Part shown: one piece after another, positions 2,690 through 19,669 of the stretch
Position numbering within the stretch: position 1 is the stretch's first letter
Layout of the letters: every line of letters starts with the position of its first letter
Assembly: GCA_018651925.1 (NCBI GenBank)
Contig: JABIDC010000009.1
Span: 80,403-144,402, forward strand
Direction of reading: 5' to 3'
DNA length: 64,000 nt
From: an archaeon
GTDB taxonomy: Archaea; Nanobdellota; Nanobdellia; Pacearchaeales; GW2011-AR1
The notes under the pieces: model-generated
The model's input: only the letters and a program-made list of their open reading frames with translations
Told to the model about the DNA's origin: nothing
Database searches by the model: none
Program-made: the position numbers and the translations under genes

Positions 2690-4075
2690 ATGGATTTTTC
2701 TGGAGAAATAAGAGAAGAGGAGAGTTTTTTAAAAAATATTCTGGTAAAGTTTAGAAAAAAAGATTTTTCTGGAACTACTGGCCAAGCCATGAAAAACTCT
2801 AGTTATCAATTGGCTCAAAATTTAATATTTAAATTTGGATCTCTTTTATTTACCATTGTAATTGCCCGTATGCTTCTTCCAGAAAGAATGGGGCTGTACA
2901 ATCTTGCTCTTGCAACAATTATTTTATTTGTAAGTTTTAGTGATTTGGGAATTTCAAGTGCGCTAATTACATATTGTTCAAAGTTACTTGGGAGAGGGGA
3001 TTTATCCAAGGCAAAGGGTTATGTTAAGAAATTGTTCAAATGGAAATTAATTTTAATTCTTTGTGCATCTATAATTCTTTTAATTAGTGCATATTTCATT
3101 GCAGAATTTTATTATCAAAAGCCAATTTTTTATGCACTTTTAGTTGGAGCAATTTATTTGCCAGTTATCTCTTTGATTGGGTTTCTTGAACAAATCTTCA
3201 AAACAAATGAAAATTTCAAAACTCCAATGCAGAAAGAAATTCTATTTCAAATAATTAGGTTTATCTTTGTTCCCTTGGGAATTTTTTTATTTTTAGAAGC
3301 AAATTTTTCTAATCAAGGAATCGTTTCGGGAGTTCTTTTAACATTAGTTTTTTCTTATCTTGTTGCACTTATTTTCTTGGCGTTAAATGCAAAAAAGAAG
3401 ATTAAGTTTTTGCAAGAGTCTCCAAAAAAATTGGAGAAAAAGGAAGTAAAAGATTTGAAAAAATTTATTTATCCTCTAAGTGCAACCGCAATGGCGGGAA
3501 TGTTTTTTGGTTATATTGATACTTTGATGTTGGGACATTTTGTTTCTAGCCAGTACATTGCTTATTACGGAGCAGCATTTAGTCTTGTAGGAGGGGTTAT
3601 TGCAATTATTGGGTTTATGTCGCTTTCTCTGATGCCAATTTTTGCTAGAAAATCTGGAAAAGAATTAGAATCTATTTTTAGGAAAACACGAGAACTAACA
3701 ATTTTAATTTCTTTAATTGCAGGAATTTTTACCTACATTATTTCTTACTTTGTTGTTAAACTTGCGTATGGAACAGAGTACCTTTTAGCAGTACCGATTT
3801 TAAGATGGTTTAGTTTATTGGTGATTATCCTTCCAATTTTAGGGATTTATGTTAGCTATTATGTCGCCCAAAAAAAGACAAAAGAATTGGCATGGTTAAT
3901 TTTAGGAAGTGCTATTTTGAATATTGTTTTTAATTTCTTTGGAATAAATTATGGCCTCTCAGTTGGAGGGGAAATGGGTGCAGTCTTTGGAGCAGTTGGA
4001 GCTACCCTTTTGAGCAGAGGATTATATTTAATGGGATTAGTAAGTTTTAGAAAAAAGAAACTAATTAAATCATAG
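2690..4075 (+). CDS. Polysaccharide/oligosaccharide flippase, MOP (Wzx/AglR-like) superfamily
   Basis: 461 aa, almost entirely hydrophobic helices (about 12-14 TM by eye), and the first gene of the glycosylation island. The call rests on topology and context rather than a sharp motif. Confidence 0.6.
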   Translation: MDFSGEIREEESFLKNILVKFRKKDFSGTTGQAMKNSSYQLAQNLIFKFGSLLFTIVIARMLLPERMGLYNLALATIILFVSFSDLGISSALITYCSKLLGRGDLSKAKGYVKKLFKWKLILILCASIILLISAYFIAEFYYQKPIFYALLVGAIYLPVISLIGFLEQIFKTNENFKTPMQKEILFQIIRFIFVPLGIFLFLEANFSNQGIVSGVLLTLVFSYLVALIFLALNAKKKIKFLQESPKKLEKKEVKDLKKFIYPLSATAMAGMFFGYIDTLMLGHFVSSQYIAYYGAAFSLVGGVIAIIGFMSLSLMPIFARKSGKELESIFRKTRELTILISLIAGIFTYIISYFVVKLAYGTEYLLAVPILRWFSLLVIILPILGIYVSYYVAQKKTKELAWLILGSAILNIVFNFFGINYGLSVGGEMGAVFGAVGATLLSRGLYLMGLVSFRKKKLIKS

Positions 4076-4109: not shown

Positions 4110-5114
4110 ATGAAGGCCATTTTAAAAGATAAAGTTATTTTAATTACTGGTGGAACGGGGTTTTTAGGACAGGCTTTGGCGACGGAAATATTAAAATTTG
4201 GGCCGAAAGCAATTAGAATTTTTAGTAGGGATGAAGTAAAACATTATAAATTTCAGCAAAAATTCGGTGAAAATAAAATATTTAGAAATTTAGTGGGAGA
4301 TGTAAGGGATTATGATAGATTGAAAAAGGCCATGAGGGGTTGCGACATAGTTATCCATACTGCGGCCTTAAAGAGAATTGACATGATAGAATATAATGTT
4401 GAAGAATCAATAAAAACAAACATTCTTGGAACAGCAAATCTTGTTAGAGCTGCCTTAGAAAATGAAGTAAAAAAAGTTGTATTTATTTCTACCGATAAGG
4501 CATGTCTTCCAGTTAATAGCTATGGGGCATGTAAGTTTGTTAGTGAAAAGATCATAACTGAAAGCAATTTCAACAAAGGGGATTCAAAAACTGTTTTCAC
4601 TTCTGTTAGATATGGTAATGTTATTGGAAGTACTGGTTCAGTTATTCCCTTTTTTCAAAAAAAGATAGAAGATGGAGAAGATGTTCCTTTAACAGATCCA
4701 AATATGACAAGATTTCTAATTACGGCAAAAGAAGCAGTACATCTTGTTTTCAACGCCATTAAGTATTCAACAGGAGGGGAAATTTTTATTCCAAGACTAC
4801 CTTCATTTAAAATTTCAGATTTGATCGGATATCTTAAAAATAAATCAGATGCAAAAAATAAGATTAAAGTAATAGGTCTTCGTCCTGGAGAAAAATTGCA
4901 TGAAATAATGATTAGTGATGTTGAAGCTCCAAGAACAGTGGAATTTCATAATATGTTAGTAATACGTTCAGAGATTGAAAAGTATCAACAAAATCAAAAA
5001 ATATATCACTATTTAAAAAATTGTAAAAAATTTAACTCCAGAGAATTTAGTTCCGAACATCACTTATTAGATGCAGAAGGAATTGAAAAATTCTTTGGAA
5101 AACGAAAAATCTAA
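4110..5114 (+). CDS. UDP-N-acetylglucosamine 4,6-dehydratase, PseB/FlaA1/CapD family
   Basis: Rossmann ILITGGTGFLG, SRDEVKH, YGACK (Tyr-x3-Lys), RYGNVIGSTGSVIPFF, GGEIFIPRLPS and GLRPGEKLHEIM all follow the PseB-type pattern. Confidence 0.8.
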   Translation: MKAILKDKVILITGGTGFLGQALATEILKFGPKAIRIFSRDEVKHYKFQQKFGENKIFRNLVGDVRDYDRLKKAMRGCDIVIHTAALKRIDMIEYNVEESIKTNILGTANLVRAALENEVKKVVFISTDKACLPVNSYGACKFVSEKIITESNFNKGDSKTVFTSVRYGNVIGSTGSVIPFFQKKIEDGEDVPLTDPNMTRFLITAKEAVHLVFNAIKYSTGGEIFIPRLPSFKISDLIGYLKNKSDAKNKIKVIGLRPGEKLHEIMISDVEAPRTVEFHNMLVIRSEIEKYQQNQKIYHYLKNCKKFNSREFSSEHHLLDAEGIEKFFGKRKI

Positions 5115-5117
5115 CAA

Positions 5118-6038
5118 ATGAAAATTTTAATCTTGGGAGCAAGAGGATTATTGGGCTCCAATTTATCTCTTTTGTATTCAAAAAATCATGATGTTTTGGC
5201 AGCGGGAAAGAACAAGCCAAATTTTACTTTTACAAAGAATTATGTTGTTGATATAAGTAAAGAAGAAGATTTAGAAATCATTGAACGGGAAAAACCAGAT
5301 TTTGTAATAAATTGTGTTGCATTAACAAATGTGGATTTTTGTGAAGAGAATTTTGAACTTTCAAGGGAAATTAATGCACTGGCTGCAGAAAAGATTGCAA
5401 AAGCTTGTAAAAAAGAAAATTCTTATTTTGTTCATATCTCCACAGATGCTGTTTTTGATGGCAACAAGGGGAACTATAAGGAAACTGATTCTGTTAACCC
5501 CATTAATGTTTATGGAGAAACAAAATTGGAGGCAGAAAAATTAATAGAAACAGTTGGGGGCAGGTATTCTATTGTTCGAACCAATATTTATGGATGGAAT
5601 CATTTGGAGAAATTTAGCCTAGCAGAATGGATGTTAAATAAATTAAGAAAAATGGAGAAAATACATGCTTTTTCAGACATTCATTCCTCTCCAATAAATG
5701 TTATTAATTTGGGAAGGGCAATTATGGAGCTATTTGAAAAAAAATACCAGGGGGTAATCCATATTTCTGGAGCTGAAACGTCCTCCAAATTTAATTTTGC
5801 AAAAAAAATTGCAAAAATATTTAATTTAAATGATAAATTAATTATTGAGTCCTCTTCTGATACTATGAATTTTAAGGCAAAAAGAGGGAAAAATCTGGGG
5901 TTGAATGTTGATTTTGCAAAAAATCTTCTGGAGACAAAACTCTTTGGAATAGAGGAAGGACTTAAAGAATTAAAGGAAGAAGAAGAAAGTGATTTTTTAA
6001 AAAAGCTTAAAAACAGAAGATTTAAGAATTATCAATAG
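5118..6038 (+). CDS. RmlD-like NAD(P)H-dependent sugar-nucleotide 4-keto reductase
   Basis: ILGARGLLG Rossmann motif, plus HISTDAVFDG and VYGETKLEAE (Tyr-x3-Lys) as in the dTDP-4-dehydrorhamnose reductase family. The substrate is unknown. Confidence 0.7.
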   Translation: MKILILGARGLLGSNLSLLYSKNHDVLAAGKNKPNFTFTKNYVVDISKEEDLEIIEREKPDFVINCVALTNVDFCEENFELSREINALAAEKIAKACKKENSYFVHISTDAVFDGNKGNYKETDSVNPINVYGETKLEAEKLIETVGGRYSIVRTNIYGWNHLEKFSLAEWMLNKLRKMEKIHAFSDIHSSPINVINLGRAIMELFEKKYQGVIHISGAETSSKFNFAKKIAKIFNLNDKLIIESSSDTMNFKAKRGKNLGLNVDFAKNLLETKLFGIEEGLKELKEEEESDFLKKLKNRRFKNYQ

Positions 6039-6049
6039 ATAATAGAAAT

Positions 6050-7117
6050 ATGGAAATTAAACTTGGAAATAAATTAATCGGATCAAATCATAAAACTTAT
6101 TTTATTGCAGATATTGCCGCAAACCACGATGGAGATATTGAAAGAGCTAAAAAATTAATCTTGCTTGCAAAAGAAGCTGGAGCAGATGCGGCAAAATTTC
6201 AACATTTTGAGACAAAATCTTTTGCAAGTGAAAAGGGTTTTAAAGGATTGGGAGGAAAATTTTCGCATCAATCAAAATGGAAAAAAGCAGTGTTTGATGT
6301 ATATCAAGATGCAGAAGTTCCGGAAGATTGGACAGCAGTGTTAAAAAATTATTGTGATTTCCTCGGGATTGATTTTTTTTCAACCCCTTATGGACTAAAT
6401 ATAGTTGACCACCTAAATCCCTATGTTCCAGCATTTAAAATTGGATCGGGAGATATAAATTTTCCACAAATACTAAAAAAGGTCTCAATAACTGGCAAAC
6501 CTGTATTAATTTCTACTGGGGCCTCAACTATTGAAGAAGTTAGATTTGCCCTAAAAGAAATTAAAAAATATAATAAAGAGATTGTATTATTTCAATGCAA
6601 TACAAATTATACTGGAAGTGAGGATAATTTTAAGTATATTCATTTAAATGTTTTAAAAAAATATCAAAAAGAATTTCCAGAGGTTATATTAGGCTTATCT
6701 GACCATACTCAAGGAGATATCACTGTTTTGGGGGCTGTTGCTTTGGGGGCGAGAGTTATTGAGAAACATTTCACTGATGATACTAAAAGAGAGGGTCCAG
6801 ACCACCCCTTTTCCTTGGATCCCCCTTCTTGGAAAAAAATGGTTCAAAGAGTAAGAATACTTGAAAAATCCTTGGGGAATGAAAATAAAAAAATTGAAAA
6901 AAATGAAATTGAAACAGTAATTCTTCAGAGAAGATGTATTCGTGCAAAAAAAAATATTTTGGAGGGCTCTTTAGTTAAAGAAGAAGATATCGAATTTCAA
7001 AGGCCAGCCCCCGCGGGAAGTCTGAGTCCAAAACATTCACCTGAAATTGTTGGGAAAAGAGCATTAAGAGATATTTCAAAAGAAGATGTTTTGAACTGGG
7101 AAAATATCCAAAAATGA
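6050..7117 (+). CDS. Nonulosonic acid synthase, NeuB/PseI/LegI family
   Basis: TYFIADIAANHDGDIERAKKLILLAKEAGADAAKFQHF N-terminal TIM-barrel signature, GLSDHT motif and a C-terminal SAF-like domain (ILEGSLVKEEDIEFQRP). Confidence 0.85.
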   Translation: MEIKLGNKLIGSNHKTYFIADIAANHDGDIERAKKLILLAKEAGADAAKFQHFETKSFASEKGFKGLGGKFSHQSKWKKAVFDVYQDAEVPEDWTAVLKNYCDFLGIDFFSTPYGLNIVDHLNPYVPAFKIGSGDINFPQILKKVSITGKPVLISTGASTIEEVRFALKEIKKYNKEIVLFQCNTNYTGSEDNFKYIHLNVLKKYQKEFPEVILGLSDHTQGDITVLGAVALGARVIEKHFTDDTKREGPDHPFSLDPPSWKKMVQRVRILEKSLGNENKKIEKNEIETVILQRRCIRAKKNILEGSLVKEEDIEFQRPAPAGSLSPKHSPEIVGKRALRDISKEDVLNWENIQK

Positions 7118-7734
7118 ATTTGGAAGAACAGTATGAGATTGGAATTGTGTTATGCCATGAAATTGATAAATCTGGGAATTTAAGCAAGGAAACAATCGCT
7201 AGAACCGATTTTGGAATAGAATTATACAAAAGAGGAAAAATTAAAAAAATTGTCTTATCTGGGGGAAAAATAAATGGGAACAGTTTTTCTGTAGCCGAAA
7301 AAATGTTGGAATACGTATATACAAAAATTAGAGAAATTCCCTTGGTTGAAGATATTTCTCTTGATACTTCCGGACAACTCATATTTCTCAAAGAAGCAAT
7401 AATCGATCCACTGAAGATAAAGAGTTTTTGCATAATAACTCATAATTGGCACCTCCCAAAAACAGAATTTATGGCCAAATACTTATTTCCTGAAGGTTAT
7501 AAAATGAAATTTATGGGAATAGAGCCAAATAAATACCTGAAAGAAGGAAGGGAAGATATAAAAAAAATCCCCCAATTTTTAGAAACTTTCAAAAAACTAG
7601 CCGGTCATGATGGAACCTTGACAGAATACTTGTTAAAATATCATCCCTGGTATTCTGGGGCATACCCCTTCGCAAAATTCAATAAAGGATATTTTTCAAA
7701 TAATGTAAAAAGGATTAAAGAAAAATATTCCTAA
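7114..7734 (+). CDS. DUF218 (YdcF/ElyC-like) domain protein
   Basis: IGIVLCHEID...KKIVLSGGK...SVAEKM...ISLDTSGQ...CIITHNWHLPK follows the DUF218 pattern. The ATG overlaps the synthase stop (ATGA). Confidence 0.55.
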   Translation: MNLEEQYEIGIVLCHEIDKSGNLSKETIARTDFGIELYKRGKIKKIVLSGGKINGNSFSVAEKMLEYVYTKIREIPLVEDISLDTSGQLIFLKEAIIDPLKIKSFCIITHNWHLPKTEFMAKYLFPEGYKMKFMGIEPNKYLKEGREDIKKIPQFLETFKKLAGHDGTLTEYLLKYHPWYSGAYPFAKFNKGYFSNNVKRIKEKYS

Positions 7735-7820
7735 TTTGATTATTATGATGAAGTCTTAGGATAGTTATGATCCAAAAATCAAATAGTTTGGACTTGAAGA
7801 AAAAATAATAAAAATCTAAA

Positions 7821-8519
7821 ATGAAAAGAAAAGAAAATATTGTAGTTATAATTCCTGCGCGTGGAGGAAGTAAGGGAATTCCTGGAAAAAATTTAAAACT
7901 TTTGCAAAACAAGCCCCTCTTAGCGTACCCTATCGAGGCAGCATTAAAAGTAAAAGATATTGATAGAGTTATTGTATCTACAGATGATTTGGAGATTGCA
8001 GAAACTGCAAAAAAATATGGAGCAGAAATATTATTTATGAGACCAAGTGAACTCTCTGGAGACATGGTTCCAACGACCCCTGTATTGCAACACACTATTG
8101 ATTGGTTAAGAGAACACGAAAAATTTGAAACAGACATAGTAGTTTTATTATATGCCACCTCTCCACTATTAGCTTCGGACAAAATTCAAGAAGGGATTAA
8201 AACAATTAAAAATAACTTGGAAGTTGATTCGGTTGTTTCTGGATGTATAGATGATAAATACCATTGGAAAATTAAAAAGGGAAATCTTAAAAGATTTTAC
8301 CCCTTGGAACTTGCCCCTAGACAGCAAATGGATCCTCTTTTTATTGAAAATGGCGCACTATACATTGTTCGTTCAAAAACTATGAAAGAGACTGGAAGAT
8401 ATATTGGTGGAAGAATAAAACATATTTTTATGGATGCAAAAGATTCATGGGATATAGATGAAGAATCTGACTTTGAAATTGTTGAGGCCCTTATGAAAAA
8501 GAAAAAGAATAAACTCTAA
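7821..8519 (+). CDS. CMP-nonulosonic acid synthetase (acylneuraminate cytidylyltransferase, NeuA/PseF/LegF family)
   Basis: VVIIPARGGSKGIPGKNLKLLQNKPLLAYPIEAA N-terminal cytidylyltransferase signature; 232 aa. Confidence 0.85.
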   Translation: MKRKENIVVIIPARGGSKGIPGKNLKLLQNKPLLAYPIEAALKVKDIDRVIVSTDDLEIAETAKKYGAEILFMRPSELSGDMVPTTPVLQHTIDWLREHEKFETDIVVLLYATSPLLASDKIQEGIKTIKNNLEVDSVVSGCIDDKYHWKIKKGNLKRFYPLELAPRQQMDPLFIENGALYIVRSKTMKETGRYIGGRIKHIFMDAKDSWDIDEESDFEIVEALMKKKKNKL

Positions 8520-10234
8520 ATTAATTCTTTTTTTATTATTTCTACCACCTTTTCACTTGATTTGCCCTCAAAAATGATATTTTCTTTTATATCTTTTTTC
8601 TTAAATGGAATAAAAGATTTTATCTGCTTTTTAATTTCGGATTCTAACGCTTTTTCAGTGTACACAACATTCACTCCAGGAAATTTTTTGTAGGAATTTA
8701 CTTTATCTAAATCTGGATAGGATAATGAAATAAGTGCATTTCCAAGCAAGCACGCTTCAACTCCCATGGTGCTATGATTTACAATCACTCCTGCTGCTTC
8801 ACTCAATAATTTAGGATTATCTGTTTTTTCTATTATCTCATAGTTGTCAAACTCTTCAGATTTTGCAACCAAAGGAATAATTTCTTTTAATTCCCAATTA
8901 GGACGAATTTTTAAAATTAATTTATAATCTGGAATTTTTTTCATTACTCTAAACATCTTTTTAAGAAGTTCTTTTTGTCTTTTTCTCGTTAAATGTGTAT
9001 CTGGAAGCATTACTCTTTCGTTTGTTATTTCCATGGCATATACTATTTCTTTTTTATTTCTTTTTGCAGAATTCCATTCAAACGAATCATATCTTGGGCA
9101 ACCAACTGATAAAACCTTTGTTTTTTTGGAACAATTTTTCTCTATTGCTTTTTTTGAAACATTCCCAAAAACAAAATAATAATCTGCATAGGTAAAAGTT
9201 CCTACTCCATATGTCATCAAACCATGTTGGAACACACAAGTTTTTACACCAAATTTATTTGCTAATTTTATAATTCCTCTAGATAAAGGAGCACTGTCTT
9301 CACTTAAAAAAATTAAATCAATTTTCTTTTTATTAAATAAGGAATAAGCTTCTTCCAAAGCTCTTAGAACATTTGTTATCTTTAATTCTAGCAAGGTATA
9401 AATATTTTCTATTATATACAGTTGTCTTTCTTTTTCAATATGGATTGACGAACCCAATTCTTTTTTAAAATTAGATAAATCTTCTTGAAAAGTTTTTTGC
9501 AAAGGTGATTCTTGTCCAGAAAATTCATAAAAAGGAGCATAAATGCCTCTAATAAAAAAACTTTTTCTCAACCGATCACTAAAATCAATTATTTTATTTT
9601 TTGATAATTTATTAATTAAATCCATAAAATAAATCTTTCCCCCCGAGGTGAAAATTTTATTTTTATTTTTTGAAAGGCCTATTCTTAATAAAGTTAAAAA
9701 TTTTTGAACAGAACTTATAGGATAGAGAATAAGCGATTTAGATTTTTTGGAAAGGAGGGCTCCCTTATAGTTTACTAAAATTATTTTTCCTGAATAATTT
9801 TCTTTGGCTAATAAAAAAATATTTTCTTTCCCAAATCCATTTTTAGAATTGAAGACTATTATTTTTTTTGGTTTCTCTAACTCAATTATTTTCTTAAAGA
9901 GAAGGGAATATTTTTTTGAATTTGCTAAAATAATAAAAATATCATAATAAAATAATTCTAAAACTGGGATTTCCCGATATTTTAAATTTGATTTTTTTAT
10001 TATTTTCCAAGTATCTTTCATGGCTTCCGAACTAATATTTTTTAGATTTATTTTATCTTCATAGTCTTCATCTTTTTTAAAAGAGATATGATTTTCCAAA
10101 AGTATTTTTTCTACTTCAAAATTAAATGAAATTGGTAGCACCCCTTTATATTTTGACTTATTTTTTAAATAGTTTTCAACTTGAAATTTATTTTCTAAAA
10201 AGATTAAATTTGATACGCTTTTTCCATCTTTCAT
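8516..10234 (-). CDS. Orphan 572-aa protein with a possible GT-B-like (KpsS/TagF-type) C-terminal half; candidate sugar-acid transferase
   Basis: Long clean ORF with an ATG start. VFQHGLMTYG...VGCPRYD and VIVNHSTMGVEACLLGNALISL resemble capsule-synthesis and glycerophosphotransferase-type GT-B proteins. The 3-prime end converges on, and overlaps by 4 nt, the CMP-sugar synthetase gene. Function is inferred only. Confidence 0.4.
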   Translation of the reverse strand: MKDGKSVSNLIFLENKFQVENYLKNKSKYKGVLPISFNFEVEKILLENHISFKKDEDYEDKINLKNISSEAMKDTWKIIKKSNLKYREIPVLELFYYDIFIILANSKKYSLLFKKIIELEKPKKIIVFNSKNGFGKENIFLLAKENYSGKIILVNYKGALLSKKSKSLILYPISSVQKFLTLLRIGLSKNKNKIFTSGGKIYFMDLINKLSKNKIIDFSDRLRKSFFIRGIYAPFYEFSGQESPLQKTFQEDLSNFKKELGSSIHIEKERQLYIIENIYTLLELKITNVLRALEEAYSLFNKKKIDLIFLSEDSAPLSRGIIKLANKFGVKTCVFQHGLMTYGVGTFTYADYYFVFGNVSKKAIEKNCSKKTKVLSVGCPRYDSFEWNSAKRNKKEIVYAMEITNERVMLPDTHLTRKRQKELLKKMFRVMKKIPDYKLILKIRPNWELKEIIPLVAKSEEFDNYEIIEKTDNPKLLSEAAGVIVNHSTMGVEACLLGNALISLSYPDLDKVNSYKKFPGVNVVYTEKALESEIKKQIKSFIPFKKKDIKENIIFEGKSSEKVVEIIKKELI

Positions 10235-10264: not shown

Positions 10265-10924
10265 ATGATGGATAAAGAAAAACAATTTAAGGAATACGAT
10301 AAAACATATAACAAATATGTTTATTCAAAAATTAACAAAAATAAAAAGGTACTAGATTTGGGATGTAATACTGGGCTTCTTGGGGAGGCATTAAAAAAAA
10401 ATAAAAATTGTATTGTTTATGGGGCAGATTATTCTAAAGAAGCAATAATTCTAGCAAAAAAAAGATTAGATTATTCCGTTGTGTGCAATTTAGAGAAAGA
10501 GGTTCCATTTGAATCTGAGAAGTTTGATGTAATTGTTTTAGCAGATATCCTTGAACATTTGAAAGATCCCGAAAATCTTTTAAACAAAATAAAAAATCTC
10601 TTAAAAAAAGAGGGAGTCATTATTTCTTGCATCCCAAATGTGGCAAATATAAATATTCGATTTCAACTCCTTTTTGGAAAGTGGGATTATAAAAAATCTG
10701 GAATTTTAGATAAAACACATTTAAGGTTTTTTACTAAAAAAACAATGAAATTACTTTTTGAAAATAAAGGCTATAAAATCATTAAAATTGATTCAACTCC
10801 GGGTTTTGAATTTTTTTGTTTGTATCATTTTAAGATTCTAAAAAGGATAAAAGAAAATCTTTGTAATATTTATCCCTCTCTCTTTGCAAATCAATTTATC
10901 ATTCTTTCGAAAAAGAATCAATAG
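10265..10924 (+). CDS. Class I SAM-dependent methyltransferase
   Basis: VLDLGCNTGLLGEAL motif I, VIVLADILEHL and EGVIISCIPN motifs. Confidence 0.8.
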   Translation: MMDKEKQFKEYDKTYNKYVYSKINKNKKVLDLGCNTGLLGEALKKNKNCIVYGADYSKEAIILAKKRLDYSVVCNLEKEVPFESEKFDVIVLADILEHLKDPENLLNKIKNLLKKEGVIISCIPNVANINIRFQLLFGKWDYKKSGILDKTHLRFFTKKTMKLLFENKGYKIIKIDSTPGFEFFCLYHFKILKRIKENLCNIYPSLFANQFIILSKKNQ

Positions 10925-13094: not shown

Positions 13095-14198
13095 TCATTT
13101 TATTGATTCACCATAAATTTTCTCCAATTTTTCATTTCTTCTCTCAATAGAAAACTTTCCTTTTTTGATAGTTTTTAGGCATTCTTTGGACATTTTCTCT
13201 CGAAGTTGATTATTAATGAGTAACTGGGTAGTTTTTTCAATTAATTTTTTAATTATCTCCTCTTCATAATCTCCAATTTTTTTCAAATCTAATTTTTCTT
13301 CAACATCTACAATAAAACCAGTTTTTCCTTGTTCAATAATTTCTTTTCTTGAGTTTGGTTCATCTTTTCTGTTTAAAGTTATTGTTGGTAATCCGAAAGA
13401 CATAGCCTCCAATAAAGAAAACCCAAAAGTGTCCACAAAACTGGGATATAAAAAAATATCTGAATTTAGCATGAGATCGAATAATTTTTTTTGGGGGATC
13501 AAATCATAAATTTTTAGATTAGAGTATTTTTTTTTCAACCCTTCTGGAACATCTGAAACAACAATTCCTTCAATGTTGTGGTTTTTTCTCAATCTTTCTA
13601 AAACCTCCAACGCGATAATCCCTCCCTTAAGATCAAAATATCTAGCAATAAAAATAATTTTCAATTTTTTATTTCGCGGTTTTTTTAGATCTTTAATCTC
13701 TGGAATTGCAGGATAAACCACTTCTAATTTATTTGCTATTCCGGGAAAGGTTTTCAAGATATCTTTTTTTGTATTTTCTGTCCAAGGAATAATTTTTTTA
13801 CAGTTTTTAGAGAGGATAATTTGCAGCACTTTTTTTTGAGTTTTTTTTGATTCTTTTCCAGAAAGATACATCGACCACCAAGATTCTATATCTGCCACCC
13901 ATGGCTTATTCTGATTTTTACTTAAACAATGAGCGCAATGAATCAAATCATAATTTCCTTCTGGACTTAAATGGGCATTTGGAAGAGATAAATTTAATTT
14001 ATTGATTCCTCTTCGAATATTTCTTTTTAAAAAATTTAAAATCCAAAAGACTTTTTTATTGGTTATGACTCCTTTTTGTTTCTTAATATTTTGAAATTCT
14101 ACATTTCTGGGAGGGGAAGAAACCAAATATTTGTAATACGGGCTGTCTGGAAATTTCCAGGGAGATTGTAAATAAATTTTTATTTTCTCTTTTTCCAT
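13095..14198 (-). CDS. GT-B glycosyltransferase (GT4 family)
   Basis: FLYPSFVDTFGFSLLEAMSFGLPTI...GKTGFIV motif. The track start at 14207 is TTG, so I use ATG 14198 (MEKEKIKIY). Confidence 0.75.
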   Translation of the reverse strand: MEKEKIKIYLQSPWKFPDSPYYKYLVSSPPRNVEFQNIKKQKGVITNKKVFWILNFLKRNIRRGINKLNLSLPNAHLSPEGNYDLIHCAHCLSKNQNKPWVADIESWWSMYLSGKESKKTQKKVLQIILSKNCKKIIPWTENTKKDILKTFPGIANKLEVVYPAIPEIKDLKKPRNKKLKIIFIARYFDLKGGIIALEVLERLRKNHNIEGIVVSDVPEGLKKKYSNLKIYDLIPQKKLFDLMLNSDIFLYPSFVDTFGFSLLEAMSFGLPTITLNRKDEPNSRKEIIEQGKTGFIVDVEEKLDLKKIGDYEEEIIKKLIEKTTQLLINNQLREKMSKECLKTIKKGKFSIERRNEKLEKIYGESIK

Positions 14199-14824
14199 AT
14201 TCCCCAAATTAAATAATATCCAGGAATTTTTATTTGAAAATTTAGAAAGTTTCTTTTAACTGGAATTATTTCTGATTTAATTAATTTAAAATTTTCCTTA
14301 AACAAATCAAGAAATTCTTTTTTATTTTTGTATTCTCTTTCAGGTGTTGGATCTAGGACAAATTTTCCATTATTTTTATATTTGTAAATTGCCCAAGGTT
14401 TTTTTATTACTGAAGAACAAAATAAAATCCCTTCTTTATTTAGCAAGCGACCTATTTCTTTAATCATTTTTCTATCTGAGGGCACATGTTCGATTACTTG
14501 GGAAGAATGAACAAAATCAAATTTTACATTTAGTTCTGTATCACAAACATCTCTTCTGTAAAATTTTTCTTTTGGAAATGCCTTTTTTAGGCCTTCAACT
14601 CTTCTCGGGGAGATATCTACGCCCACAATCTTTAATTTTGGAAATTCTTTCTTTAATGCGTGAATTAAAATTCCATCTCCGCAACCAAGATCAATTAAGG
14701 AATTTATTTTCTCTTTTTTAAAAACTTCTTTTAAATATAGGGGGATTGAAGAGTTTTTTAGGGGTTGGATGAAATTTTCTGAATATTCTTTGTTTCTTTT
14801 TAAAATTCTTTCTTTATCCATCAT
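14180..14824 (-). CDS. Class I SAM-dependent methyltransferase
   Basis: LIDLGCGDGILIHAL motif I, DFVHSSQVIEHV and EGILFCSS motifs. It overlaps both neighbours. Confidence 0.8.
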   Translation of the reverse strand: MMDKERILKRNKEYSENFIQPLKNSSIPLYLKEVFKKEKINSLIDLGCGDGILIHALKKEFPKLKIVGVDISPRRVEGLKKAFPKEKFYRRDVCDTELNVKFDFVHSSQVIEHVPSDRKMIKEIGRLLNKEGILFCSSVIKKPWAIYKYKNNGKFVLDPTPEREYKNKKEFLDLFKENFKLIKSEIIPVKRNFLNFQIKIPGYYLIWGIWKKRK

Positions 14825-15945
14825 TTCTTTAAAACCTCTACAACTTTTTTTGTCAACCCAACTTCCCCATAAGGATTCTTGATTGGGAGCGGTTTAAATT
14901 TAGGGTTTAAATATTCTTGAATCTTCTTTTTAGATTCCTTCACTTTCAATCCAGATAAGAATTGAAAATTGGTCTCAAGTGCTTCTTGTCTCTCAGTAGC
15001 TTTTCTAAAGAGAATACAAGGAACATTAAAAACAAGGCTCTCTTCTTGTAATGAGCCCCCATCGCAGAGAATTAATGAACAATTCTTAATCTGGTAAATA
15101 AATGAGGTATATTCCATATTAGGAATTATTTTTATCCTTTTGTTAGAGATTAATTTATCATAAAGACCAAAAGTTTTCAATTGTTTTTCGGTGCTATCAT
15201 GCATTGCAAAATAAGTAGGAAGCTCCAAAGAAGAAATAATTTCTACAATTTTGGATAATCTTGTCTTATTTTTCAGATTCTCGTGCCTATGGACTACCAC
15301 CAATGCAAATTTCTCTTTATTCAACCTCTTTGTTTTATTTTTTTTAGCCATTTCAAAAGAAAGATGAATCGAATCAACCACTGTATTTCCTAATTGAATA
15401 ATATTCTTCTTACCCACATATTTCTTTAAATTATTCTTTGATCTTTTTGAAACTGCAAAAAGAATGTCAGAAAATTTTCCTGCAATTATTCTAGAAATCT
15501 CTTCTGGGAAGGGTTCAAAATATTTCTCACTTCGAAGCCCAGCTTCTAGATGAACATTTTTATATTTTTTAAATGGATTAAGAAGTTTTGAAGAACCAAT
15601 TGCTGCGGCAGAAGTAGTCATAGTGTCCCCGTGGTAAAGAACATATTTCAAATTCTTTAATTTTTTTAGTTCTTTTCTAATTAAGAAAACATTTAGAAGG
15701 GCAAATCCAATTGATTTTTGATTTATTTTTGACCAAAGTTTAGTTGTTTTTTCTGGTTCAAGAGTCAAAACCGCATCTGGCTTTTTAACATTAAATTTCT
15801 CGCAAAGATTTTGAAGATTATGTTGTCCAGTGTGAATAAAATAATAGGGAATTTTTTGTTTTTTTAGTTCTTGCATTACGGGAAAAGTTTTTATCAATTC
15901 TGCTCTAGTCCCAATAATTATTGCAATTTTAGATTTATTTACCAT
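14821..15945 (-). CDS. UDP-N-acetylglucosamine 2-epimerase, WecB-like (probably non-hydrolysing)
   Basis: IIIGTRAELIKTFPV, HTGQH, YHGDTMTT, HLEAGLRS..EPFPEE and CDGGSLQEE motifs follow the WecB/MnaA pattern rather than the NeuC one. Confidence 0.8.
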   Translation of the reverse strand: MVNKSKIAIIIGTRAELIKTFPVMQELKKQKIPYYFIHTGQHNLQNLCEKFNVKKPDAVLTLEPEKTTKLWSKINQKSIGFALLNVFLIRKELKKLKNLKYVLYHGDTMTTSAAAIGSSKLLNPFKKYKNVHLEAGLRSEKYFEPFPEEISRIIAGKFSDILFAVSKRSKNNLKKYVGKKNIIQLGNTVVDSIHLSFEMAKKNKTKRLNKEKFALVVVHRHENLKNKTRLSKIVEIISSLELPTYFAMHDSTEKQLKTFGLYDKLISNKRIKIIPNMEYTSFIYQIKNCSLILCDGGSLQEESLVFNVPCILFRKATERQEALETNFQFLSGLKVKESKKKIQEYLNPKFKPLPIKNPYGEVGLTKKVVEVLKK

Positions 15946-15969: not shown

Positions 15970-16992
15970 TTAAAGATATGTGTCTTTTTTCAAATCTTCT
16001 TTAACCATTTCTTCAACTAATTTTTTAAAAGCGATTTTTGGTTTCCATCCAAGCTCATTTTTTGCTTTTGAAGAATCTCCAAGGAGCAAATCAACTTCCG
16101 CTGGTCGATAAAAGTCCGGGTTTATTTTAACAACCCTTTTTCCATTATCTTTTCTAAAATATTCTTCTGATATTCCCGCTTTCCCATTACTTTCTATTTC
16201 AATTCCTGCAGCAAGAAATGCTTCTTCAAGAAATTCTCTAACAGAATGAGTTTCTCCTGTGGAGAGGACATAGTCACGCGGAGTTTCTTTTTGAAGCATC
16301 ATCCACATCCCTTCAACATAATCTTTTGCATGTCCCCAGTCTCTCTTTGAATTCAAGTTCCCAAGTTCAATTTCTTTTTGAAGTCCTTTTTTTATTTTTG
16401 CGACTGCAAGAGTAATTTTTCTTGTAACAAATTCTTTCCCCCTTCTAGGAGATTCATGATTAAAAAGAATCCCATTACATGAAAAAAGGCCATAGCTTTC
16501 TAGATAATTTCTTGAAATCCAAAGAGAGAATAATTTGGCGCAACCATATGGGCTACGAGGATGAAAAGGAGTTGTTTCTGTTTGAGGAGTTTCCTTCACT
16601 TTACCAAATAGTTCAGAGGTTGATGCTTGATAAAATTTTGTTTTCCTTGTAAGGTTTGCTTGTCTTATTGCTTCAAGAAGATTTAGTGTGCCAATTCCTG
16701 TTACTTCTGCAGTATATTCTGGAATTTTAAAACTCACCCCTACATGGCTTTGTGCTGCAAGATTATATACTTCATCTGGCATAATCTCCCTGATAATTTC
16801 TTTTGTTTTTCCTGAGTCAGTAAGATCTCCATAAACTAAATTTATCTTCTCTTTTATGTGATCAATCCTAGAAGTATTTGAAGTTGAACTCATTCTTATT
16901 AATCCGTAAACAGAATATCCTTTTTTAAGAAGTAATTCGGCTAAATAAGATCCATCTTGCCCCGTAATTCCGGTTATGAATGCTTTTTTCAT
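15970..16992 (-). CDS. gmd: GDP-mannose 4,6-dehydratase
   Basis: Near-colinear with classical Gmd: [64 protein letters not shown] and [14 protein letters not shown]. Confidence 0.95.
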
Positions 16993-16993
16993 T

Positions 16994-19669
16994 TTATTTA
17001 GTAAATTTCAAATTATCTAATCCAGCATATTCTCCAGATAAATCTAGGAATTCTTCTCTGGCAACAATCTCTTCTGGAACATTTACCTTCCAAATTTTTA
17101 TTGGTCCTTGAATTCCATTGAAGTAAAAGAATTCTCCAATGTTTGCCCCATTTAGGTAAGGAGAGACTTCCGAATGAACCAGTTCAAGCCCGTCATATTG
17201 ATTAAAAGAATTATTCAATAGATAAGCTTGGGCAACCAAACTATTCATTGTTTTAGGAGAAAGGTAAATTAGTGTTCCAAAATTATCTGCCTGGTATCCT
17301 TGATTTCCAGAGATAATTCTTGGGATTATCGAAATAGTAGATTCAAGTCCTTCTTCAAATTCGATAATTTCTCCGCCGAGATAAACATATTTAAGAGGGA
17401 TTTGTATTTGTGCCCCATTATAGCTGAAAACTCCTTGGGGTTGAATCAAATTTCCTTCGGTGGTTGTTTCAAAAAGAACTCCTATTATTGCAGACTTATA
17501 TGCTGGAAGAAAAATTTCTTTTCCCTCCAGAGTATAAATAATATCTTGATCAACAATTGTTGCACCTTGGAAAATCCTAACCAGACTATTAGATTTTTCT
17601 TGAATTTGAGAAGGATCAGAAAACATTACTGGCAATGTAGAATATCTATCTTCTCCTTCTGGTCCGCTTCCGATTTTACTGTATGCCCCGTATTTTCCAA
17701 TGTCTGAAGGATCAATTAAAAGATATGAAACATTTTGAGCTTTCATAAAACTATATGCTGTTTCCGGATTTGGAGTAGTTAAAACATATCTTCCAATAAG
17801 GTGGTCCCAATAAGAATTTGCATGGCCTCCATCTGTTACGCTTGGCCTTTCTCCAAGATATTCTACCCAATAGCCATAATCCCACCAATGAACAAAAATT
17901 TCTCCTTCTTGAGTGTTGTTTCTAACCCAAGACATTGCTTGTTGCCACTGTTCATTTGCAGAAGGGCCAGTATATTTGGCCTGGACCGAAATTGTTTCAG
18001 AAAACCCTACAAAGTTAATTATTAATCCGATTGAAGCAAGTACTAATAAAATTCCAACTAATGTTTTTGTTGCGCTTTCTTTATTTTTCTTAAATAGATT
18101 TACTAATGAAAATATGAAATATGCAATCATAAAACAAATAAAGGGAACGATTGCAAAGAAAAGTCTTATCGCTCCTCTTGTGGCAATCAACATTGGAACC
18201 AACCAAGCGAAAATAAGAATCAAATTTGAATTAATTTTGATCTCTGATTTGAGATATGCTCTAACAGAGTAAATAATAAAAATTATTGCCCCTATGAAAT
18301 AAAGTAGCTGACTAATGAAATTTTCCCCATTCAAAAACGAATCTCCTGAAATACGGCTAAAAAGGATAGAGGAAATAAGAATTATCCAAGAGGCAAAAAA
18401 GAATCTCTTCTCTTTTCTCTTTTTTATTCCTTTTGAAATATCAAATCCTAAAAAAAGCATTCCAAAATAAAATATCCAAAATACAGTCTTTCCAATTTGA
18501 GAGAACCAATCAACAAGGTAAGGTTGAGCATTTTCTGCGACAGTTAATCCAACTCTTCCTGCCCCAAATGGTTGTAATAATCTTCCTCCAATCTGAGATA
18601 AAAGTTCTCCAAGATTTCCTACAAAGATTGAAAAGAAAATTGCTCCCAAAAAGAAAGTAAGAACCCCGCTAGTTAGGAGAGGATATTTCTGAGGTGTTTT
18701 ATTAACCTTTTTTAGAAAATATTTCTCAAAGAAATAATTTATTGGAAAAAAAATCGCTAAAAATAATGTAAGAATTCCACTGGTGCTAAGTAAATATCCT
18801 TTAATGAGGGTTATTGAGGAATACCCAAAAAATTCTCCAAAGATTAAAGTGAAAATAACCCAAATTAGATAAAATATCAAATAAGATAGAAGAGATTTAG
18901 AACCTTTATTTTTTGATTCAATAAGCCAGATTAATAAAAATGAAAGGGGGATGATCATAAATAAGAATTTAGCAATTCCTCCCCAGGATAGAAGAGAGAA
19001 AATTGTTGAAAATGCAAGAAGTAATGATAAAAGAATTAATTTCCAATTAATTTTTCTTAATTTTTCTAAATACTTTAATGAAAGGGAAAGGATGAGAAGG
19101 GCAAGGAAGAAAGACATCATTCCAATTGCTTCGTGATCTGAGAATCCCGCCATTGTCCTATGAAGATAAGGAGGAATTACTGCCAAAAACCCGCTAGAAA
19201 GAAATGCCACCCATTTATTTGAGGTTAAACTCCAGATTAAAAGAAAAAATAAAATCATTCCTAAAACATAAAAAACAACAGGAGATAAAACATCAATTTG
19301 TTGTAACGAATATTCTCCAAATGTGTTCGCTAATTTGTACAAAAAGACTATTGCTTGAGGCAAAATTTCTTGGCTAAATCCAACTTTCAATGAAGGATAT
19401 CTCATAAGATCAGATTCCGGTAAGTGCCCCTCTAAATTTATTGTTTCCGCTAATCTTAAAAAATAAAAAGGATCCAAAGCAAGAGGAATATATTCTCCAG
19501 TAGTAGAATCTTTTAACAAAGGAACATTTGAAAGTCTAATTGAAGAGGTCCAAATAATAAGGGATAAAAATAAGATAATCAAAATTATATTTTGGACTTT
19601 TTGTTGAGAAAAAAAATTAATTACTGGCTTGCTTTTTTCTTTCAACAATTGAATTTTCTTCTGAACCAT
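16994..19669 (-). CDS. aglB: Dolichyl-(mono/di)phosphooligosaccharide-protein glycosyltransferase AglB (STT3 family)
   Basis: 891 aa. The N-terminal half has about 13 TM helices and the C-terminal domain is soluble. The diagnostic WWDYG motif is present ([15 protein letters not shown]). Confidence 0.9.

Follow-up and report, generated by a model that had tools for sequence, protein, structure and literature searches.

The window analysed here, a stretch of 64,000 nucleotides from contig JABIDC010000009.1 (GenBank assembly GCA_018651925.1, positions 80,403 to 144,402 of the forward strand) in the genome of a Pacearchaeales archaeon, contains a cassette of five genes that, on the comparative evidence, probably constitutes a self-contained, amine-free branch of the pseudaminic-acid-type nonulosonic acid pathway, with putative substrates, products and stereochemistry. 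The product is most likely a rare sialic-acid-like sugar with a hydroxyl group in place of the second amino group of pseudaminic acid, and a protein of the DUF218 family probably takes over the role of the UDP-sugar hydrolase, which is missing. A distinct synthase clade, the constant company of dehydratase and reductase, and gene fusions indicate that the amine-free cassette is no accident. Its genes, all intact, are as follows:

4110 to 5114, forward strand: PseB-type (inverting) UDP-N-acetylglucosamine (UDP-GlcNAc) 4,6-dehydratase (Pfam Polysacc_synt_2; PseB is the best model)
5118 to 6038, forward strand: RmlD-like NAD(P)H 4-ketoreductase, occupying the PseC/PseH position (Pfam RmlD_sub_bind, 194 bits)
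6050 to 7117, forward strand: NeuB-family nonulosonate synthase with SAF domain (Pfam NeuB, 232 bits)
7114 to 7734, forward strand: cytoplasmic DUF218 (Upr-like) protein, candidate UDP-6-deoxy-N-acetylhexosamine (UDP-6-deoxy-HexNAc) hydrolase (PF02698, 45.4 bits against a cut-off of 27.6)
7821 to 8519, forward strand: cytidine monophosphate (CMP)-nonulosonate synthetase (CTP_transf_3, 103 bits; PseF model 165 bits, cut-off 206)

The initial annotation had described five co-directional, nearly abutting genes at 4110-8519, and the open reading frame (ORF) coordinates and family profiles bear this out, with spacings, in order, of 3 nucleotides, 11 nucleotides, a 4-nucleotide overlap and 86 nucleotides; the overlap of synthase and DUF218 genes is indeed the ATGA that had been reported, as read directly in the sequence. 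The contig is 148 kb long, and the cassette is situated in its middle part. Since the order reductase-synthase-DUF218 is repeated at 99-100% identity on two independent Joint Genome Institute (JGI) metagenome contigs, the minimal arrangement is not an assembly artefact.

By its best curated model (PseB, TIGR03589, 349 bits against a cut-off of 407.75), its best solved relative (Helicobacter pylori FlaA1/PseB, 2gn4, 262 bits) and its catalytic motifs (TDK and YxxxK both align), the dehydratase is classed as PseB-like, and its product should be the usual substrate of PseC, the L-arabino 4-keto sugar, as inferred from known PseB; the FnlA and LegB models give 244 bits (cut-off 730) and 69 bits (cut-off 475), respectively. 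The best solved relative of the reductase is RmlD (2ggs). The synthase scores below both relevant curated cut-offs (NeuB_NnaB, 270.7 against 399.65 bits; PseI, 230.5 against 340.25 bits), and homologues of the CMP-nonulosonate synthetase at 55-69% identity close the cassette in relatives.

The initial annotation had seen no aminotransferase, acetyltransferase or UDP-sugar hydrolase in the island and had proposed a search of the genome for them. This search covered all 12 contigs of the genome (640,746 bp; G+C about 31%; 86.65% complete) and found none elsewhere, and the absence extends to all that is assembled. The sole match to DegT aminotransferases is a NifS-like cysteine desulfurase; PseG (TIGR03590) has no match at E ≤ 0.1; there is no NeuD/PglD-type acetyltransferase, and the PseH model finds a single generic GNAT protein only (34 bits against a cut-off of 93). 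Tblastn searches with bacterial PseC, LegC, PseG (from Klebsiella), LegG and LegH, and with the DegT, NeuC, hexapeptide and PglD-like acetyltransferase, PIG-L and formyltransferase proteins of DPANN archaea gave nothing at E ≤ 0.01.

The CMP-pseudaminic acid pathway (PseB-PseC-PseH-PseG-PseI-PseF) of H. pylori, Campylobacter jejuni and a Klebsiella plasmid (locus L041) leads from UDP-GlcNAc to a 6-deoxy sugar, a free sugar, a nine-carbon acid and a CMP-sugar, and it has in common with the window its PseB-type start and its NeuB-family synthase and CMP-transferase end. The window genome differs in lacking PseC, PseH and PseG, with the RmlD-like reductase apparently replacing amination and acetylation and the DUF218 gene in the PseG slot; in a synthase outside the PseI clade (8h2c and Klebsiella PseI); and in a predicted product that bears a 7-hydroxyl instead of a 7-acetamido group. 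The legionaminic acid (LegB/C/H/G/I/F) and N-acetylneuraminic acid (Neu5Ac; NeuC/B/A) pathways, exemplified by locus L043, likewise use a NeuB-family synthase and a CMP-transferase, but the window lacks a LegB-type dehydratase by the score given above, LegC, LegH and a hydrolysing NeuC/LegG, and its synthase falls outside their clades.

The synthase was placed in a tree of 73 sequences that included as references PseI (8h2c), Neisseria meningitidis NeuB (NmNeuB, 1xuu), Klebsiella PseI (L041) and the synthase of a Sulfitobacter LegB/LegC/NeuC locus (L043). It belongs to a 36-row clade (SH-aLRT support 100) apart from the PseI, NmNeuB and LegI-type references, and so lies outside the NeuB, PseI and LegI clades that the initial annotation had proposed, among others, for comparison. 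All 36 clade members have aspartate (D21 in the window) at the position of NmNeuB Glu25, where 34 of the 36 other sequences have glutamate, and a clade-specific threonine (T188) stands where every one of the 36 non-members has proline. Bacteroidota, Legionellales, Desulfobacula and marine metagenomes contain many relatives that share about 60% identity. Of 401 genomes sampled from the phylum to which the window belongs, 79 have NeuB-family genes, with only three reaching 50% identity to the window synthase; of 27 genomes from the same family as the window, none has such a gene. Among 201 Flavobacteriaceae genomes surveyed, the clade was found only in the already known Flavivirga genome, and a scan of a genome collection with the synthase added one distant locus of Lachnospiraceae. 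Thus, the distribution of the clade is patchy, as is usual for surface-glycan genes, and the cassette is rare in Flavobacteriaceae.

The gene neighbourhoods of synthase-clade members and of DUF218 relatives were compared, yielding about 12 reductase-type loci from Nanoarchaeota-type archaea and several bacterial groups. A PseB-type dehydratase, an RmlD-like reductase, a synthase of the clade and a CMP-transferase are always present in them, the reductase adjoins the synthase in every cassette examined, and an aminotransferase never accompanies a reductase-type cassette in these loci. The full defining content (the four enzymes plus a DUF218 protein or a small family 2 glycosyltransferase (GT2), and no aminotransferase) is found in the window and in L004 (Flavivirga), L005, L007, L008 (a Legionellales metagenome-assembled genome), L009 (Desulfobacula), L048, L050, L056, L102 and L103, and the module without aminotransferase also in L055; apart from L004, L008 and L009 these loci are Nanoarchaeota-type. 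On a Maritalea plasmid (L040) the dehydratase (annotated as pseB at NCBI), a short-chain dehydrogenase/reductase (SDR) and the synthase are more loosely arranged. The cultured species Flavivirga rizhaonensis and Maritalea myrionectae both have the small-GT2 form of the cassette, in Flavivirga together with PIG-L and a formyltransferase. A PIG-L deacetylase and a formyltransferase accompany most of the cassettes and presumably swap an N-acetyl for an N-formyl group; L055, which has the closest synthase relative (75% identity), has the former and not the latter. The window has neither and can therefore be regarded as the minimal core, and its cassette is the shortest version among the loci compared.

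In three Nanoarchaeota-type relatives the reductase and synthase are fused into proteins of 665-671 amino acids (L048, 5243-7258; L050, 5297-7312; L056, 5325-7322), with RmlD_sub_bind at residues 1-285 and NeuB at residues 353-597. In this phylum the fusion partners of NeuB are for the most part recognisable enzymes of the same pathway (acetyltransferases, NeuC-type epimerase, DegT plus cytidylyltransferase, formyltransferase), which makes the fusions good evidence that the synthase is fed by the reductase. Such NeuB fusions were seen in L020, L023, L024, L026-L029, L037 and L039; their acetyltransferase partners are of the hexapeptide or PglD-like kinds, and other partners include a methyltransferase, an SDR and an AP_endonuc_2 TIM barrel.

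It is very improbable that the cassette belongs to a canonical diamino (Pse/Leg) pathway and that the genes for the aminotransferase, acetyltransferase and hydrolase of that pathway are hidden in the 13% or so of the genome that is unassembled. The completeness estimate leaves room for such genes, and canonical sets, often fused to NeuB, exist in other genomes of the phylum; yet these genes are normally clustered and the cassette lies mid-contig, the same amine-free content recurs in the dozen or so loci and in a second small genome without DegT (G404, 0.7 Mb, which holds L005), the reductase would be left without a role, and the synthase is outside the PseI and LegI-type clades.

In the amine-free pathway, the sole step without an assigned enzyme is the release of the sugar from UDP, and a DUF218 protein or small GT2 is the only unassigned gene common to all of the reductase-type cassettes examined. 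The slot beside the synthase is occupied by DUF218 in the window, L007, L008, L048, L050, L055, L056 and the JGI contig of P0122, by a small bacterial-type GT2 in L004 and L009, and by a small GT2 resembling polyprenyl-phosphate-sugar synthases in L005; in the loci compared the two kinds are mutually exclusive in this slot. The DUF218 gene has been kept in the window though PIG-L and formyltransferase are gone. Its subfamily is small (11 of 13 clusters matched by profile among 5.8 billion sequences), and all eight of the genomic contexts recovered fall within this cassette. In the metagenomic locus L106 (6983-9721) a PseB-like gene (63% identity to that of the window) is followed by DUF218, a PseC-like aminotransferase and the contig end, a position between PseB-like and PseC-like genes that fits a step common to amine and amine-free routes.

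The Escherichia coli DUF218 proteins SanA/UprA, ElyC/UprB and YgjQ/UprC hydrolyse the phosphoacetal bond of sugar-undecaprenyl-diphosphates, with water attacking the sugar, a need for Mg2+ or Ca2+, and dependence on a Thr-His-Arg-Glu cluster (T125, H149, R152 and E182 in SanA) (bioRxiv 10.64898/2026.10.14.759067, October 2026). This chemistry fits the PseG step, because both reactions cleave the same type of sugar-diphosphate bond; hydrolysis of a sugar-1-diphosphate with attack of water on the sugar is what a UDP-sugar hydrolase would perform. In an alignment, T85, H113 and K116 of the window DUF218 protein match SanA T125, H149 and R152, so that Thr and His are kept and Arg is replaced by Lys; YdcF, a cytoplasmic E. 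coli member of unknown function, lacks both the Thr and the His, unlike the window protein. The characterised E. coli enzymes are membrane-anchored and periplasmic and act on C55-diphosphate-linked glycans (bioRxiv 10.64898/2026.10.14.759067), and SanA, ElyC and YgjQ have an N-terminal hydrophobic extension in the alignment, whereas the window protein is archaeal, shows no N-terminal hydrophobic helix in its sequence or its AlphaFold model (confident, with a predicted local distance difference test (pLDDT) of 92.8) and is encoded in a nucleotide-sugar operon. The suggestion in the initial annotation that the DUF218 protein might fill the missing hydrolase role is thus supported, though not proven, by conservation of the slot, retention upon loss of tailoring genes and the sugar-diphosphate chemistry of the family (bioRxiv 10.64898/2026.10.14.759067), and the balance tips slightly towards its being the UDP-sugar hydrolase.

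Four further genes of the island bear on the alternatives:

2690 to 4075, forward strand: MOP/Wzx-type flippase, first gene of the co-directional block (Pfam Polysacc_synt, 81 bits)
8516 to 10234, reverse strand: 572-amino-acid protein of glycosyltransferase B (GT-B) fold, convergent neighbour of the cassette (weak Epimerase_2 similarity)
14821 to 15945, reverse strand: non-hydrolysing WecB-type UDP-GlcNAc 2-epimerase, context outside the cassette (wecB model, 212.8 bits against a cut-off of 210.15)
16994 to 19669, reverse strand: AglB/STT3 oligosaccharyltransferase, context of the N-glycosylation island (Pfam STT3 and archaeo_STT3 model)

Genome-wide, there are two Epimerase_2-like genes, both inside the window. 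The gene at 14821-15945 carries the motifs HGDT and EAGLRS..PFPEE, passes the wecB model and fails the NeuC model (64.7 bits against a cut-off of 235.9), in agreement with its earlier description as WecB-type and non-hydrolysing; the statement that it was the only epimerase needs correction, for the GT-B protein is also weakly Epimerase_2-like.

The initial annotation had left the choice between a 4-hydroxy, 6-deoxy (non-diamino) nonulosonic acid and two separate sugars, and the recurrence of a module without aminotransferase, the three fusions and the separate synthase clade favour the former. With two sugars, the dehydratase and reductase would make a UDP-6-deoxy-L-HexNAc donor while the synthase and cytidylyltransferase made Neu5Ac from N-acetylmannosamine (ManNAc) supplied by WecB and a hydrolase, possibly DUF218; we regard this as improbable. 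A non-hydrolysing WecB is indeed present in the island, PseB-like and RmlD-like genes without NeuB in other DPANN genomes show that a 6-deoxy sugar can be an end product, 2-acetamido-2,6-dideoxy-L-altrose (L-6dAltNAc) is reported as a residue in its own right in Fusobacterium nucleatum, and the NeuB_NnaB model outscores PseI (271 against 231 bits). Against these stand the reductase-synthase fusions, a synthase outside the NmNeuB clade with clade-specific active-site changes, and a WecB gene that is 6 kb away on the opposite strand in a different gene block; moreover, the order dehydratase-reductase-synthase is kept in loci without a nearby WecB, there being no WecB-type epimerase in the flanks of L004, L008 and L009. 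In L048 and L102 one is found about 7-8 kb downstream. Donor use and nonulosonate use of the 6-deoxy sugar could coexist.

A similar comparison can be made with the UDP-L-QuiNAc (WbvB/WbvR/WbvD) and UDP-L-FucNAc (FnlA/FnlB/FnlC) pathways, in which a UDP-GlcNAc 4,6-dehydratase is also followed by a 4-reductase, and a WecB-like 2-epimerase is present in the window island too. CapE/FnlA enzymes have methionine at the position of the YxxxK tyrosine, whereas the window dehydratase has the PseB-type tyrosine and the FnlA score already given. In addition, the window reductase is linked to a NeuB-family synthase, which in relatives is its fusion partner, and WecB belongs to another gene block.

Several observations weigh against the proposed pathway or against the part assigned in it to DUF218. 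The PseB, NeuB/PseI and PseF models all score under their curated cut-offs, so that there is no textbook orthologue among the three enzymes; at 86.65% the genome is incomplete, and no sugar-1-phosphate nucleotidylyltransferase (PF00483) was found in the whole of it at E ≤ 1e-5. The catalytic Glu of the E. coli enzymes has no clear counterpart in the window DUF218 protein, in which Q154 aligns and E148 is nearby. Its structural matches in Foldseek are weak and Rossmann-like (TilS, nicotinamidase, YdcF), YdcF (3ca8) having the highest TM-score among those with probability above 0.9 (probability 0.93, TM 0.44), and its sequence profile gave no match among solved structures. In DPANN genomes that have no real NeuB, distant DUF218 genes (25-29% identity) are neighbours of PseB-like, RmlD-like and PIG-L genes, so that DUF218 may serve the 6-deoxy-sugar branch otherwise, acting on a UDP-6-deoxy sugar or a lipid-linked form for another purpose. 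By our own count, generic DUF218 and NeuB show no genome-level association in the phylum, co-occurring in 11 genomes against about 10 expected by chance; the link between DUF218 and NeuB is specific to one DUF218 subfamily. Finally, the GT-B model is closest in fold to the hydrolysing 2-epimerases GNE (4zht) and NeuC (5xvs) (Foldseek E 2e-11).

The NeuB-less loci themselves, L087 (G337:C9), L091 (G317:C22), L088 and L089, contain methyltransferase, PseB-like, RmlD-like and PIG-L genes together with a divergent DUF218, and L087 holds a C-methyltransferase and a radical SAM/SPASM gene as well. A search of the literature found nothing linking DUF218 with nonulosonic acids, or nonulosonic acids with DPANN.

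The fold of the GT-B protein raises the alternative that the pathway is as proposed and this 572-residue protein, as a diverged analogue of NeuC/PseG, is the UDP-sugar hydrolase, in which case DUF218 or the small GT2 would clear lipid-linked (dolichyl-diphosphate) intermediates in Upr-like fashion or act otherwise on the 6-deoxy sugar. This is unlikely, though it deserves more weight than the two-sugar arrangement. Epimerase_2 is matched weakly by all five family members, the top Foldseek matches are the two hydrolysing epimerases just named, and most cassettes contain a homologue or have one next to them, though those of Flavivirga and Legionellales are weak; besides, the published DUF218 activity concerns lipid-linked glycans and not nucleotide sugars (bioRxiv 10.64898/2026.10.14.759067), and distant DUF218 genes adjoin PseB-like genes where NeuB is lacking. 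On the other hand, no member of the family is present within 8 kb in L048 or in L009, two loci that have transferases of other types instead (a Maf-type protein in L009), the family is duplicated in L045 and L046, and the epimerase catalytic motifs HGD, EAGLRS and PFPEE are not conserved in it. It also has weak matches to the CMP-/CDP-dependent GT-B families Capsule_synth, Glyphos_transf and polysialyltransferase (Foldseek E 7e-9 for polysialyltransferase 5wcn, with a model pLDDT of 76), and a hydrolase role would leave the nonulosonate transferase to be found and a cassette-universal gene without a role. Remote bacterial homologues (L004, 13193-14428; L008, 12772-14592) have (K/R)LHPR where the archaeal proteins have KIRPNWE, an HP motif being a typical feature of the sialyltransferase-like GT-B enzymes of bacteria. 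The patchy and duplicated occurrence of the family suits a transferase tied to its acceptor, and the protein is probably a CMP-nonulosonate transferase. Comparative genomics thus suggests a hydrolase role for DUF218 and a transferase role for the GT-B protein.

In the amine-free pathway favoured here, the PseB-type enzyme would convert UDP-GlcNAc to UDP-2-acetamido-2,6-dideoxy-L-arabino-hexos-4-ulose, and the RmlD-like enzyme would reduce the 4-keto group, replacing amination by PseC and acetylation by PseH, to give a UDP-6-deoxy-HexNAc, most simply UDP-6-deoxy-L-AltNAc. The cytoplasmic DUF218 protein would then cleave the sugar-UDP bond by hydrolysis, the PseG step; the synthase would condense the free sugar with phosphoenolpyruvate to a 5-acetamido-3,5,9-trideoxy-non-2-ulosonic acid with a 7-hydroxyl; and the cytidylyltransferase would activate this acid with CMP. 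The convergent GT-B protein probably then adds the sugar to a lipid-linked glycan, which AglB would transfer to protein. Taken as a whole, the combination of a cytoplasmic DUF218 protein replacing PseG as UDP-sugar hydrolase with a minimal route to the CMP-activated 5-acetamido-3,5,9-trideoxy (7-hydroxy) acid on DPANN-type archaeal N-glycans is a tentative proposal that falls somewhat short of an even chance. A route of the Kdn-9-phosphate type was rejected, since a 6-deoxy sugar cannot bear the 6-phosphate that it requires.

A natural 3,5,9-trideoxy nonulosonic acid, fusaminic acid, occurs in the O-antigen of F. nucleatum ATCC 25586 according to two papers that cite the 2017 work (PMC13014188, PMC7371886), where it shares the O-repeat with L-6dAltNAc and appears as the only natural nonulosonic acid on record that combines a single amino group with a 9-deoxy end. 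L-6dAltNAc is the hexose to be expected from PseB and a 4-reductase, a likeness at the level of chemical structure only; the stereochemistry of the window product is not predictable from the genes, and its N-acetyl group is presumed. No published biosynthesis study or gene set for fusaminic acid was found, as judged mostly by titles and abstracts.

Nonulosonic acids are part of the decoration of microbial surfaces and influence how these are recognised by hosts, phages and immune lectins. For a type of sugar with one nitrogen and a 9-deoxy end that those two papers record from a single Fusobacterium O-antigen, the cassette offers a concrete hypothesis of five enzymes starting from UDP-GlcNAc, and if correct it would supply the fusaminic-type trideoxy sugars with their first gene set. 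The soluble branch of the DUF218 family would likewise be given a function for the first time, and one of its members a nucleotide-sugar substrate, when the chemistry of the periplasmic members was shown only in late 2026. Very small archaea of symbiotic type would thus be seen to invest in nonulosonic-type sugars.

The surroundings of the cassette offered some additional observations. Homologues of the flippase (37-42% identity) flank it in L005, L007, L050, L056, L102 and L106, and the window genome encodes an archaeal-type SecD, which together with AglB/STT3 and close relatives labelled Nanoarchaeota indicates a DPANN archaeon of Nanoarchaeota type; L005 is syntenic with the window (SecD, flippase, cassette), with its reductase split into ORFs of 131 and 133 amino acids and its GT-B gene into ORFs of 170 and 406 amino acids (coordinates noted for split ORFs, 9054-9956), which may reflect frameshifts or decay. 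L045 and L046 (G388, G101) are complex loci, having three NeuB-family genes, a PseB-cytidylyltransferase fusion, a cytidylyltransferase-NeuB fusion, DegT and two tandem GT-B paralogues.

The glycosylation island starts from UDP-GlcNAc and GDP-mannose despite the lack of a PF00483 match in the genome, and a host may be the source of these nucleotide sugars, or the nucleotidylyltransferase gene may be unassembled. The genome has only three extended-SDR genes, namely the dehydratase and reductase of the cassette and a GDP-mannose 4,6-dehydratase (Gmd; 15970-16992, reverse strand), for which no partner reductase/epimerase (Fcl/Rmd) is recognisable in the assembled 87%. The possibility that the RmlD-like reductase serves mainly as partner of Gmd was rejected, as its linkage to NeuB persists where Gmd is absent and the two are fused in relatives. 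Two class I methyltransferases (10265-10924, forward strand; 14180-14824, reverse strand), which score 30 and 41 bits with the model of a pseudaminic-acid-associated methylase (cut-off 112), may methylate the glycan.

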